NCBI GenBank assembly: GCA_964016885.1
Contig: OZ024760.1
Span: forward strand, 8,742,001 to 8,806,000
DNA: 64,000 nt
Direction: 5' to 3'
DNA from: Eledone cirrhosa
Lineage: Eukaryota
Shown here one piece after another: positions 3,375 to 62,231 of the stretch; within the stretch, counting starts at the first letter, position 1; the number at the start of each line of letters is the position of its first letter. The position numbers were made by a program, and so were the translations under genes. The notes beneath the pieces are model-generated. The model was not told the origin of the DNA and did not search any database. It was given only the letters and a program-made list of their open reading frames with translations.

Positions 3375-3435
3375 TATTTTATCTGATGAGAGCGTACCAA
3401 AGTGTTGGTGCCCTTGAAATATATATAATAGAATA
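3375..3435 (+). ncRNA. Type I hammerhead ribozyme, C-C/palindrome class, family B
   Basis: TATTTTAT CTGATGA gag-C-gtacca..tggtgc-C-ctt GAA ATATATAT A ATAGAATA; stem I 8 bp; predicted cleavage after 3427. Confidence 0.8.
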
Positions 3436-3581
3436 AATATGGTTTTATAAATATAGTTTCCATTTATTAATATCATTGATATTATACTCCAGAAAAACTT
3501 GTTGAGTGCTTCGAATCTGTTATAAATATATTTGTTGAATTACCAACAAATTAAATATCGCTTTGCTTATATATATATTAT

Positions 3582-3976
3582 ATGTATGTATGTATGTATG
3601 TATGTATGTATGTATGTATGTATGTATGTATGTATGTATGTATGTATGTATGTATGTATGTATGTATGTATGTATGTATGTATGTATGTATGTATGTATG
3701 TATGTATGTATGTATGTATGTATGTATGTATGTATGTATGTATGTATGTATGTATGTATGTATGTATGTATGTATGTATGTATGTATGTATGTATGTATG
3801 TATGTATGTATGTATGTATGTATGTATGTATGTATGTATGTATGTATGTATGTATGTATGTATGTATGTATGTATGTATGTATGTATGTATGTATGTATG
3901 TATGTATGTATGTATGTATGTATGTATGTATGTATGTATGTATGTATGTATGTATGTATGTATGTATGTATGTATG
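3582..3976. repeat. Pure (TATG)n tetranucleotide array
   Basis: About 395 bp uninterrupted. Confidence 0.98.
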
Positions 3977-4319
3977 ATTATTATTTTATTTTATTTTTTT
4001 TTTCTTCTCGTGCAATGGCCATACTCGATAACGAGGGGGGAACCATCATGTATGTATGTATATTATATATATATCTCCCGAGTTCAATCGGGCGTAACTA
4101 CAATAAGTAAGGTACTCAATACATATATATATACATTATATATATATATAATATATATATATATATATATATATATTATATATCGGTATGAGCATTCGCA
4201 TAGATTAATATAAATGTACATATGTATATATGTGGCTTATGGTGTGTATATCGTAATAACTCTTCCATTGAAACTGGATTACCTTTAAGAAATATGAAAA
4301 CAAACAGATTTCAGATAGA

Positions 4320-4780
4320 TAGATAGAGTGACTCAAAGAGAGAGAGAGAGAGAATGAGTGAGTGAGTGACTCAAAGAGAGAGAGAGAGTGAGTGAGTGAC
4401 TCAAAGAGAGATAGAGAGAGAGAGAGTGAGTGAGTGAGTGACTCAAAGAGAGAGAGAGAGAGAGAGAGTGAGTGAGTGAGTGAGTGAGTGACTCAAAGAG
4501 AGAGAGAGAGAGAGTGAGTGAGTGAGTGAGTGAGTGACTCAAAGAGAGAGAGAGAGAGAGTGAGAGAGTGAGTGAGTGAGTGAGTGAGAGACTCAAAGAG
4601 AGAGAGAGAGAGAGAGTGAGTGAGTGAGTGAGTGACTCAAAGAGAGAGAGAGAGAGAGTGAGTGAGTGAGTGAGTGAGTGAGTGAGTGAGTGAGTGAGTG
4701 AGTGAGTGAGTGAGTGAGTGAGTGAGTGAGGGTGAATATGGGTGAGTGTGGGTGAGTGCGGGTGAGTGCGGGTGTGTGAA
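4320..4780. repeat. (GA)n/(GAGT)n compound array punctuated by GACTCAAA
   Basis: Recurring unit [GA]n[GAGT]n-GACTCAAA. Confidence 0.9.
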
Positions 4781-5228
4781 CATGCGTTGTATGTATGAGT
4801 TTGAATGTGTGTATCTGTGTGTCAATATGTGTATATGTTTATCATTTGTTTTAGATCAGCCCCAGTTGTGCTGCAAGTAATGCCTTGTTATTGTTACGTC
4901 CCTTTCGTTGATCCCTCTCTATCACCCCCCACCGCCCCCCATTAGCTCCTCTTTCACAAATCCCTGCTCCTCATCATCTCTCCATCTCAACTAAACAAGT
5001 AGTTTCTAATTATAGAAACTCTACTATACAATATCACCGCCTCCCACCCCCCTCTTCTTAATTAGTTGCATCTTGTCATATCCACTATATCGAGATGGCG
5101 CTCAACTAATTAGACAACTGGCGCCAGCTTACGGTTATCTCCCCTTGGGCCAACGGAGCGTCACTATTTCTGATCACGTATCTCAAGCTTTCTCTCGATA
5201 TGTCTGTCGTTCCATCGGCACAAACATA

Positions 5229-5540
5229 TGTGTGTGTGTGATGTGTGGTGTGTGGTGTGTGTGTGTGTGTGGTGTGTGTGTGGTGTGTGTGTGGTGTGTG
5301 TGTGGTGTGTGTGTGGTGTGTGTGTGGTGTGTGTGTGGTGTGTGTGTGGTGTGTGTGTGGTGTGTGTGTGGTGTGTGTGTGGTGTGTGTGTGGTGTGGTG
5401 TGGTGTGTGTGTGGTGTGGTGTGGTGTGGTGTGGTGTGGTGGTGGTGGTGTGTGTGTGTGTGTGTGTGCATATATATATATATATATATATATATATATA
5501 TATATATATATATATATATATATGTATGTATATATGTATG
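5229..5540. repeat. (GT)/(GGTGT) and (TA)n microsatellites
   Basis: Direct. Confidence 0.95.
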
Positions 5541-5769
5541 TATTTGAATTACGTATTTCTAAAGAAATACGGTATGTTTATAAATAAACATTTAGAAAGC
5601 CATAGCTATGAAAAACACTAGCAGCTAACGCCACCCAACGGTGTCCGACAGAATCAAGAGGGACAATCGTCGATGCATTTCGAAAATGTGTGTTGAAACA
5701 GATATTGTTATACTTTGGGAGGGTCATGCTACCAACAAAAACACATGCACCTCTACAATTCATTGTAAA

Positions 5770-6295
5770 GCCTGGACTATAATTAATTATAAGACCTGGA
5801 CTATTATGGGACTTGGAGTGTAAGTGGGGCTAATTTGATCTACTTTTAGTAATGACTGGATTGTTGTGTAACTAGGAGTGTAAACTGTAGTAGTTTGGCC
5901 TACTGTAAGGAAAGATTGAGCCCCTGTAGGACTAGGGATGTGAACAGTGTTGGTTTAGCTAAACCACAGAGGTTATGGATGTGAGTAGCGATGGTTTAAC
6001 TGAGTCACTGGGAGACTAGGGATGTGAACAGCGGTGGTTTAACTAAGTCACTGTGAGACAAGGGATAGGAGCAGTAGGGGTTTAATTGAATCACTGTGAG
6101 GCAAGGGATGTGAGCAGTGGTGGTTTAATTGAGTCACTACGGGGCTATGGACGTGAGCAGTGGTAATTTAACTGAGCTACAATAAGACAAGGACGTGAGC
6201 AGTGATGGTTTAACTGAGCTACAATAAGACATGTACGTGAGCAGTGGTGGTTTAACTGAGCTGCAATAAGACAAGGACGTGAGCCGTGGTGATTT
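5770..6295. repeat. Diverged ~40-bp minisatellite (GGATGTGAGCAGTGGTGGTTTAACTGAGTCACTGTGAGACAA-like)
   Basis: About 12 units; the units toward the right end are most similar to each other. Confidence 0.85.
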
Positions 6296-7082
6296 GATAT
6301 AAAGGTATTTCTAGAGAGTTGTTATGAAATCTCTCATTACCCAGTTAGTGAGATTTGGATATTTGGTTCAGATTTTTCAGATATTTGTGAAGATAGATGA
6401 ATGGATGTACAGTGATTACTTGACCCAGTCCAATCAGTCATACGGCAAAGATACTTCTATTACATAGAAATTTTAACTGCTAGAAATAACAGTCATAATC
6501 TCCCAAATCATACACTGCCACTGTAAACAAAGTAAGACAACAATGATTGTTTGGTATGAATGAAAGGTCAGTGTTGTGACGAGTATTTGATCTTAGGTTT
6601 GCTGAATCGGGTTCAATGTCGAACTAATAGCCAAGTCCTCTAAGTTTACTGAGCTAGAGAGAGACATAGGAGCTAGAGAGAAACGGGGACAAAGAGAAAG
6701 ATAGAGGGGGTGCGATGGGGAAAAGGAGACAGAGGCAACTGATAGGAAGAAAAAAGGATAAATAAATAGGAAAAAAAACTAGAAAAAACAAAAAAGGGAA
6801 AGAAAGAAAACAAGTAACAAAAAGAAGGCGAGGACAACGACGAAGAAGAAAAGAAAAAGAAAAAGCTAATGAAGACAATGAAGAAAAAGACGAAGAATAA
6901 ATAGAAGAAAAAAGAAAACGACCAAGAACAAGAAGACAGAAAACGAAGATGGCGATGAAGGAAAAGAAAAAGAAAATCAGTGATGTTTAGAAGAGTATTA
7001 AATAAAATAGTATTAACATGGCCTGGTGTGGTTATAGGGAGAGATGTAGTGTTTAGTTGTGTCTAACTATGAGCCGTTTATT

Positions 7083-60504: not shown

Positions 60505-60708
60505 AGAGAAAGAAAAGTCAAAGAATTTGCAAGGATCAAAACAAGTTTATTCTACGTACGCTTCATTTACGTAAAACATGTAATCAATAATTTTAATTAA
60601 TTAATTAATCGAAATTAGCAATTACATATTTGTCTTTAATGAAACGTATGCCGAATATGAAATGTTTTCATCCCTGCAAACTCTTCGCTTTTCCTTTCTC
60701 TCTCTCTC
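60505..60708. repeat. Diverged ~200-bp palindrome between TA tracts
   Basis: AGAGAAAGAAAAG..TTTGCAAGGAT.AAAACA / TGTTTTCATCCCTGCAAA..CTTTTCCTTTCTCT. Confidence 0.7.
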
Positions 60709-61053
60709 ATATATATATATATATATATATATATATATATATATATATATAGATGTTCAGTAATGTCGCGAACTTTTGGATATTTCCTCCTATATTTTAC
60801 ATCGGATTTATTTGATCTTTAAGATTAATAATCTTAACATCACATTGAGCTTTCAATCATCTTGTTTAGTGAAAACTAAGTGGGTATCTTCCTTTATTAA
60901 TCTTTTTACACACACACATATTGTACATTTATTTATATAACGCCAGCATCAACAGTTTTCCAAGAGATATCAACATAAAAGTACCTGTTATTTTTATCTA
61001 AAGACATTTTTTTTTCCAATTCCACCCCGCCTGTCCCTTAAATCTATCTTATT

Positions 61054-61089
61054 TCTTCTGATGAATGACTAGCGTCCGAAACGTTAAGA
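61054..61089 (+). ncRNA. Minimal HHR, family C
   Basis: TCTT CTGATGA atGACtagcGTCc GAA ACGT T AAGA. Confidence 0.72.
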
Positions 61090-61299
61090 CCCCCCTTCCT
61101 GCTATATCAAGCGTTAACCTAATATATTCCTTCCATATACTGTACCAATTGTGTTGTTATTTCTGTTTATTGAGAGAGAAATAGAGAGAGAGAGAGGCGG
61201 TCCCCAAGTCAAATTTTCATTTTCCTTTTCATGTTGATATTCTCTCTTCCTCTACGAAGGGCATGGGTTCGACGTAACCCTGTTTTTGTAATTTTGTAG

Positions 61300-61380
61300 A
61301 AATTGCCTGATGAGACTGTCCTGTCTTGCATCATAACTGGGGGTGATGGAGCTGGGCCATTGAAACATGTATAGTGATTT
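61300..61380 (+). ncRNA. HHR, palindrome class (stem II base degenerate)
   Basis: AAATTGC CTGATGA ... GAA ACATGTAT A GTGATTT. Confidence 0.62.
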
Positions 61381-61464
61381 CACGGAATTAAAATTTACAA
61401 CATATCTCGCAGTACGCCCTTCTGTGTTGTGTTTTTATATATATATATATATATATATATATAT

Positions 61465-61600
61465 AAACGAGTAGGACCCCGACGGCTTGAGCTCAGCCGT
61501 CGGGGACCTACTCGTTCCTATTACCCACTCTACTACCCTAAGTATTGAGTACTTTGGTGCGTTATGGTCCACCTGGTTCCTTACCACATTTCCTTCGTTA
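61465..61600 (+). mobile_element. Family A element with the shortest fold-back
   Basis: AACGAGTAGGACCCCGACGGCT..AGCCGTCGGGGACCTACTCGTT plus tail, between (TA)n tracts. Confidence 0.85.
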
Positions 61601-62172
61601 TATATATATATATTCATTTAAATTATTGATTTATTGATATTTTATTTGAGTGACCCGAATCTTCCTGGTGGTTCTTTTTCGGCTGCACGGGTGATTTTAG
61701 GCATAATCTCTATGTGTTGGTAATTTAACGATAGTTATAGCTCTGATTTATCCAAATTATTGAGCCCTCTGCCACTCATATCGGATGTTGTTTATCGTTA
61801 ATTCGTGAGCTGATTTTCCGATACTCGATTATTCTATTATATATATATATATATATATATATATATATTGGGTATGAATCGAAGTTGTAGCCACAATATA
61901 ACAGGTACTAATCGAATTTTTTGAGGCAAACACAAAGCACTCAATGGAGTGAGAAGTTATTACATTATCGTCCAGAGTAAACACAAAAATACAAATAGTA
62001 AGACTCCAAGAAAAATGACCGAAGACAGTGGCCATACTTATACCACAGCAACTATATATATATATATATATGCCACCAATTCTTTGAGAAAACAACACCA
62101 TACTTCGTGACTTTAAAAGATCGAAGTAACAGAAGTAAACTTTCCATCTTTGTTTTCTCTGTTCAAATTCTA

Positions 62173-62231
62173 GCTGCCTGATGAGGTCATAGCTGTTGAA
62201 CAATGGTTATCACCGAAATATATATAACAGC
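62173..62231 (+). ncRNA. Type I HHR, C-C/palindrome class
   Basis: GCTGC CTGATGA ggt-C-atagctgtt..aatggttat-C-acc GAA ATATATAT A ACAGC; AATAAA downstream. Confidence 0.75.

Follow-up and report, generated by a model that had tools for sequence, protein, structure and literature searches.

A 64,000-nt stretch of the Eledone cirrhosa genome (assembly GCA_964016885.1, contig OZ024760.1, positions 8,742,001–8,806,000; hereafter the window) carries predicted type I hammerhead ribozymes in which a cytosine at stem II position 10.4 is left unpaired. We judge, with a probability of about 0.6, that this unpaired C10.4 is a contact site kept by selection in several Hydra-clade lineages of Penelope-like elements (PLEs), in a ribozyme that acts as a dimer and probably with help from a protein. 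It is the one unreported, lineage-specific feature of these ribozymes, and the evidence for its selection is fair. The hammerheads themselves form a lineage variant with ordinary carriers, not a new class.

Fifty hammerheads with an 8-nt stem III were collected from 770 kb of randomly chosen regions. At 10.4/11.4, 24 of them have C·C, 15 have C·U and seven have a normal pair, with two U·U and one each of C·A and U·C making up the rest. Since the partner at 11.4 is C, U or rarely A, the constant feature is the unpaired C10.4. An earlier reading of the window, made from the letters alone (the sequence-only reading), had proposed a conserved C·C mismatch; the unpaired C is indeed retained, but its partner is not strictly C. 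For a non-circular split, 19 randomly met families were sorted by the base at 15.2. Unpaired C10.4 occurs in 8/9 U15.2 families (the ninth is a doubtful single match), and among these eight 10.4 is the sole invariant of 16 stem II positions. Thirteen multi-copy families having the unpaired C were compared: 10.4/11.4 never pairs in them, and the flanking pairs at 10.2, 10.3, 10.5, 10.6 and 10.7 hold in 63/65 cells. Slid registers pair 25–50% of cells, and a shifted stem II register was rejected because it paired 23/65 (35%). In a plain alignment of 18 copies, 89.2% of cells are paired compared with 69.6% when shuffled (0/500) and 10.4/11.4 pairs in 0/18, counts that are inflated by the relatedness of the copies. 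Changes of C to T at 10.4 are enriched in CpG context (6/60 vs 4/193); decay at the level of copies is uninformative on selection. The unpaired C10.4 is accompanied by U15.2–A16.2 and a Y-R-Y/R-Y-R stem I, and C15.2–G16.2 mostly by a paired stem II of 60–115 nt; this association may be a lineage signature or a functional coupling.

C10.4 could instead be a frozen accident, a tolerated mismatch that arose by one ancestral change and was inherited without function. We regard this as unlikely, though it accounts for several observations. Sister lineage H has G10.4–C11.4, a single change away; 11.4 has drifted to U, in about 30,000 copies, and to A; 10.7 is likewise constant among the six protein-linked lineages; and the independent lineages are few. 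What a frozen accident does not readily explain is that none of the 13 families has repaired the mismatch to a pair, while the neighbouring positions are 92–100% paired and 10.3 takes all four pair types. Moreover, C10.4 is constant across carrier proteins that are 43–50% identical between groups A, B, E and C·U (35–42% to the paired family H), and is kept in family C, which has no open reading frame (ORF). Protein trees place the carriers on three or four deep branches; the grouping of A/F with the C·U family is supported (97/93) and E is unplaced. The trees were built with relatives other than the named Hydra reference proteins, and the reverse transcriptase (RT) tree used for the approximately unbiased (AU) test left out near-copies and partial rows. 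The contigs of one independent DNA sample showed no variant at ≥10% at the two C positions of family A, whereas 11.1 varied widely.

Several results weigh against selection of C10.4. The 13-family set was found partly with C-containing patterns. Families with C15.2 have C·C in only 1/10 cases, other pyrimidine mismatches in 3/10 and a normal pair in 6/10, so that 6/19 randomly met families pair at position 4, and a long-stem paired group with the same 8-nt palindrome accounts for 1,767 pattern matches. None of 50 hammerheads from Hydra relatives of other animals has the motif (48 are paired, two have the position within short loops). Its absence from sister and other-animal elements means that C10.4 is dispensable for the clade. 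We searched stem I and the flanks by eye for an invariant Watson–Crick partner of C10.4 and found none. The families are related, a single origin is not rejected (p-AU 0.19), and the U15.2 group, joining B/G, has weak support (81/71). Finally, cleavage by the hammerhead of an anole PLE was dispensable for insertion in vitro, as described in PMC11167929.

The other-animal set was drawn from metagenomes and contaminated bins and comprised 101 loci with Hydra relatives. A covariance model search found no mismatch-type motif in 100 of these 101 loci, and the best hit (29.8 bits) has a fully paired stem. Twenty-three contigs of bacterial genome bins (L159–L181) contain animal Hydra-type PLE ORFs, many with hammerheads, and are probably host contamination. 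No Hydra relatives were found in viral contigs.

The motif is abundant. In the 3.0-Gb genome, the pattern core-NNN-C-N(12-40)-C-NNN-GAAA-N6-UH has 91,363 matches compared with 2,181 for the reversed pattern used as control, and the motifs are therefore not chance occurrences. Gaps of 41–70 give 785 matches (control 22). C10.4 with a non-C partner gives 31,939 (control 119), most of them from a single C·U group and some with C·A. Non-C at 10.4 gives 10,811 (control 630); decayed copies and mis-parsed matches make up most of the first 100 listed. The total load of roughly 120,000 pattern matches is comparable to the 126,247 hammerhead motifs reported for axolotl (PMC7229834). A covariance model, which the sequence-only reading had proposed as a check, was built from 18 copies and recovers 10 of the 12 sites named in that reading as well as one more at 53047–53117 (minus strand); seven of the ten were training sequences, and two sites with a 100-nt stem II were missed. 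Rfam gave no hammerhead family at E ≤ 10 in 43700–44700 or 33950–34370, and none among the matches listed for the whole window (150 of 257). Rfam thus failed to detect these motifs in the regions tested; among its matches listed, we saw only microsatellite and fold-back look-alikes of hammerheads and other families.

Judged by their sequences, the carriers are mostly 5′-truncated 3′ ends of Hydra-clade PLEs. Copies of the family at 44182 end in (TA)n, are 5′-truncated and often have an inverted partial copy; long copies hold an RT–GIY-YIG ORF. Element L234 is an intact partial tandem composed of hammerhead, tail, 741-aa ORF, 1.26-kb 3′ untranslated region (UTR), hammerhead, tail and (TA)n. Its protein has the DKT and RWR motifs, a CxCX5C linker, no CCHH, and CxxC plus CxH around conserved E and N, and the same marks define the Hydra clade in PMC8557442. 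In keeping with that clade, L234 has a single ORF with RT followed by a C-terminal GIY-YIG, and DKT with RWR replacing RWK. We also find (TA)n insertion, pseudo-long terminal repeats (pLTRs), tandem and inverted 5′-truncated copies, and the hammerhead within the repeat. The repeat units, 3.7 kb in L234 and 4.1 kb in L331, exceed the 'generally under 3 kb' of the clade, which PMC8557442 presents as a tendency rather than a strict criterion. Pfam had no match for three ORF fragments, and domains were therefore read from motifs. By adjacency and strand, Hydra-type ORFs are linked to families B (L331, L334), E (L183), G (L419, L420) and the C·U family (L422), and also to paired-stem families (L413, L395, L414, L416). 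The link of the L418 ORF to a hammerhead with an 11-nt stem was wrong and was discarded. Parent ORFs of family D, the 61300 family and the ATAATTAT family were looked for and not found.

Family C repeats in tandem with a unit of 2.8 kb, for which the best protein match has E = 0.017. It is young, with 98–99% identical units that contain a hammerhead and a tail hairpin (L411, L412; window 37229–37450), and has several thousand copies. Its layout is that of an unusually large retrozyme-like non-autonomous element and putative PLE derivative. Elsewhere, hammerheads with a 10-nt palindrome and a long stem II stand in tandem ∼560 bp apart (L062 at 5637, 6208 and 6764; L233 at 7001), forming a retrozyme-like array.

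A conserved hairpin, RCTCY...YGAGYRCT, lies 3′ of the hammerhead and shows compensatory change, with ACTC/GAGT here and GCTC/GAGC in the Hydra elements of other animals. Besides the copies in Table 1, one is present at 61936–61978 (minus), and relatives have it at 2456 and 2548 (L234), at 2635 and 2734 (L331) and in L081–L171. Of its two copies, one follows the short insertion end and the other the long one, in each case a few bases to the 3′ side. The hairpin likely positions reverse transcription.

Stem III is an 8-nt palindrome. Positions 15.2, 15.3 and 15.4 pair in 57/57, 57/57 and 56/57 matches without a palindrome filter; these came from the random regions plus 30 loci picked by a pattern that leaves the six bases free. 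The centre pair takes four forms across the 13 families. The two inner stem III pairs are impossible within one molecule, which supports cleavage as dimers, and the covariation at the centre is clean comparative support for it. In predicted energies, the monomer stem III costs 1.9–3.4 kcal/mol in U15.2 families and the 8-bp duplex gains 2.2–10.5 kcal/mol. A15.1–U16.1 with its further pairs is thus available as an intermolecular 8-bp palindrome, the monomer stem being unfavourable, and these ribozymes are predicted to cleave only as dimers. The sequence-only reading was right about a covarying palindrome compatible with dimer cleavage in type I PLE hammerheads. Palindrome and dimer logic are, however, clade-wide and already published. 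Dimer cleavage through a palindromic helix III was proposed in PMC4209133 and is reported as shown in the review PMC6765202, and File S2 of PMC8557442 lists palindromes of 8–10 nt for Hydra elements. Stem III has 8 nt (3), 9 nt (22) or 10 nt (25) in the 50 distinct other-animal hammerheads.

All 12 sites named in the sequence-only reading are present in the window with their parts in the order given there. C·C occupies 10.4/11.4 in 11 of them, and 61300 has U·C. The self-complementary 8-mer, said to be maintained throughout, is complete in nine and not in the other three, and AATAAA, described as usual after stem I, lies ≤28 nt downstream in seven. We rejected AAUAAA as a fixed tertiary element, since its start ranges from 1.4 to 1.14 and 7/19 multi-copy families lack it. 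Nor does a role as poly(A) signal account for the ends, which lie at least 35 nt downstream without poly(A). The stem II base was described as 3 bp, but at four sites its first pair is mismatched, which leaves 2 bp: U·U at 37334, C·C at 40991, C·A at 44467 and A·C at 53261. The type I core (CUGANGA, GAAA, NUH, stems I and II) is present, with core bases intact in 9/12 sites and damaged at 34276 (U16.1 to C), 43738 (U4, U16.1) and 44467 (C3, U4); the first stem I pair is broken at 62173 and 43738. Minus-strand coordinates in that reading are 3′ ends, the cores being at 34048 and 44591. It overlooked the minus-strand hammerhead at 53047–53117, the core-damaged inverted partner of 53261. Its claim of dissimilar flanks and unrelated elements fails: the named sites represent six or seven families rather than ten to twelve independent cases. 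Sites 3375, 9555, 44182 and 53261 are one family (76–83% identity across 141–308 nt), 40991 and 44467 another (89%), and 62173 is about 70% alike to 34276. Two pairs are the arms of single fold-back insertions (33999/34276, 96% identity; 53047/53261). The family D group (L314, L318, L435, L453; window 43738) has the triplet AUC preceding the cut; the title of PMC1636495 describes this triplet as one that most natural hammerheads lack.

How might C10.4 act? Two sense hammerheads of a tandem transcript, from the 5′ and the 3′ repeat, would pair by the 8-bp intermolecular stem III, and the dimer is predicted to cut after NUH. The 1x1 loop would then give either stem I or the protein encoded by the element a flexible place to dock, and so tune how the ribozyme folds into its active state. 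In canonical hammerheads stem II is short, and loop 1 docks on loop 2 right past its end (PMC3088659; PMC2632901). Here stem II is a long helix and there is neither a loop 2 nor a loop 1, and the 1x1 loop sits approximately where loop 2 canonically begins, which makes it the probable docking point. We prefer RNA docking to stem I over protein binding; the former is a tentative proposal, and the latter strikes us as doubtful. That no conserved partner base turned up is a genuine drawback of the docking proposal. The sequence-only reading had likewise taken the C·C loop for a selected tertiary-contact or protein-binding element. Neighbour covariation and retention of the C make selection likely without proving it. 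A bolder version, to which we give rather little credence, is that C10.4 is the recognition site by which the element's RT, and with it non-autonomous hitch-hikers, gates the dimeric hammerhead. If true, this would be a natural protein-switched ribozyme in about 120,000 copies, for which the paired-stem sister families would be natural controls.

Single and head-to-head genomic copies are unable to supply two sense copies and are therefore passive; they would be by-products of target-primed insertion into (TA)n. Insertions end 40–70 nt and 130–190 nt past the cut site, in agreement with depth steps in the independent DNA sample, and their templates were therefore uncut there. Two internal start sites on uncut RNA would give the short and long insertion ends. 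The anole element has two internal start sites, and its hammerhead needed the element's protein (PMC11167929). The same insertion ends could be taken to mean that the mismatch is a brake, weakening the 2–3-bp stem II base so that the ribozyme rarely fires and uncut RNA is left as template. Uncut RNA was the main substrate in PMC11167929, and the predicted pairing of 10.2/10.3 is <0.5 in 7/11 mismatch families folded. However, three paired families folded are also low at 10.2/10.3, any mismatch would serve as a brake whereas C is fixed at 10.4, and the dimer requirement already restricts cleavage. We therefore consider a brake improbable and retain a selected contact at C10.4 as the preferred reading.

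The sequence-only reading had suggested that C·C together with the 8-nt palindrome marks a distinct, possibly undescribed hammerhead subtype found across unrelated elements. Convergence or module exchange could produce such a class, and two observations are in its favour: family E combines C·C with another stem I and stem III and is not grouped with the others in the tree, and no Rfam hammerhead model matched the two regions tested. Yet all five protein-linked carrier groups are Hydra-clade elements, the clade as a rule has the palindrome but not the mismatch, and position 4 forms a normal pair in sister families that share this 8-nt palindrome. Four pattern matches in viral contigs have neither convincing stems nor a Hydra protein and seem to be coincidental. 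We give the idea almost no weight. In the literature consulted we found no description of a C·C mismatch in hammerhead stem II; the alignments of Lunse et al. may contain mismatch-bearing motifs. Hammerheads of PLEs cleave poorly by themselves, and one of them depends on the protein of its element. One genome holds C·C, C·U, C·A and fully paired versions side by side with intact parent ORFs, which offers a precise handle on docking versus protein assistance. If the mismatch is inert, it is merely a lineage marker.

Table 1. Hammerheads and carrier features in the window (positions count from its first letter).
Feature	Position	Strand	Remarks
Type I hammerhead, family A	3375..3435	+	core 3383; C10.4=3393; C11.4=3412; predicted cut after 3427
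5′-truncated 3′ end (pLTR plus tail), family A Hydra-clade element	3345..3572	+	73% to intact element L234
Tail hairpin motif, first copy	3486..3510	+	
Hammerhead, family A	9555..9619	+	predicted cut after 9611
Fold-back insertion: inverted tail plus direct short-end copy	9371..9661	.	hairpin 9438-9460 minus
Hammerhead, family B, long-end arm of fold-back insertion	33999..34052	-	
Hammerhead, family B, short-end arm	34277..34330	+	U16.1 changed to C
One family B fold-back insertion	33845..34378	.	tail hairpin 33900-33942 minus; 91-92% to full tandem element L331
Hammerhead, family C (2.8-kb ORF-less tandem unit)	37334..37392	+	U·U at 10.1/11.1
Hammerhead, family E	40991..41119	+	101-nt stem II region; 97% to Hydra element in L183
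Degenerate hammerhead, family D	43740..43814	+	
Hammerhead, family A	44182..44246	+	C10.4=44200; C11.4=44223; predicted cut after 44238; tail hairpin variant 44294-44316 (+)
Hammerhead, family E	44467..44598	-	damaged core
Hammerhead, inverted short-end arm of 53261 insertion	53047..53117	-	C3 changed; C·C present
Hammerhead, family A, long-end arm	53261..53326	+	tail hairpin 53376-53398 (+)
Hammerhead, old decayed family	61303..61378	+	U·C at position 4
Hammerhead related to families B/G	62174..62231	+	first stem I pair broken

The window also contains further hammerhead cores without the mismatch, minimal or of other types (29217+, 37788+, 41359+, 44659-, 52324+, 54479+, 61058+, 62701-), which the sequence-only reading had left uncounted. 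Minisatellite arrays at 7084–8710, 11518–12266 and 18470–19568 have units of 29, 40/78 and 62/354 bp, some with long open frames. A tRNA-like match just over the Rfam gathering score (30.5 bits) at 43465–43528 (minus) is probably the head of a short interspersed element (SINE).

Among known systems, the closest counterparts are the Hydra-clade PLE hammerheads of PMC8557442, which lists an octopus member, Hydra-1_Obim. They share the type I fold in a 3′ repeat, a palindromic stem III of 8–10 nt, (TA)n targets, the protein motifs and frequent U·U at 10.1/11.1. Unlike those elements, ours have units of 3.7–4.1 kb, a 3′ UTR of >1 kb and a stem III fixed at 8 nt; by eye, 0/26 Hydra rows in File S2 of that paper have a 1x1 loop followed by further helix, stem II being short and paired. 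The minimal, palindromic PLE hammerheads of PMC4209133, described there as having low in vitro activity, are likewise type I with no loop 1, a palindromic helix III, a dimer model and a U-rich 5′ flank. Their extra nucleotide between 9 and 10.1 and their G10.1–C11.1 pair are absent here. The supplement of that paper has C·C in 0/56 examples and a fourth-pair mismatch in two singles (C·A in S. purpuratus 1, U·U in Clonorchis 2). The short-stem-III hammerheads of Lunse, Weinberg and Breaker, as summarized in PMC6765202, are PLE-associated, with a palindromic stem III and dimer cleavage, as here. Family C resembles the non-LTR retrozymes (PMC7229834; 10.64898/2026.07.22.740005) in its non-coding tandem units with one type I hammerhead each, but its unit is 2.8 kb rather than 50–970 bp and it has no canonical loop 1/loop 2 motif. 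The canonical metazoan type I motif (purine...A loop 2 after 4 bp; PMC2632901) is replaced in the hammerheads studied here by a stem II that continues as a helix, with no conserved loop or stem I bulge. The anole element Poseidon PAc (PMC11167929) similarly has two internal starts giving a short end plus tail, with the hammerhead upstream, although it belongs to another clade and its minimal hammerhead overlaps the ORF start. Protein assistance was shown for Poseidon PAc; here it is only inferred.

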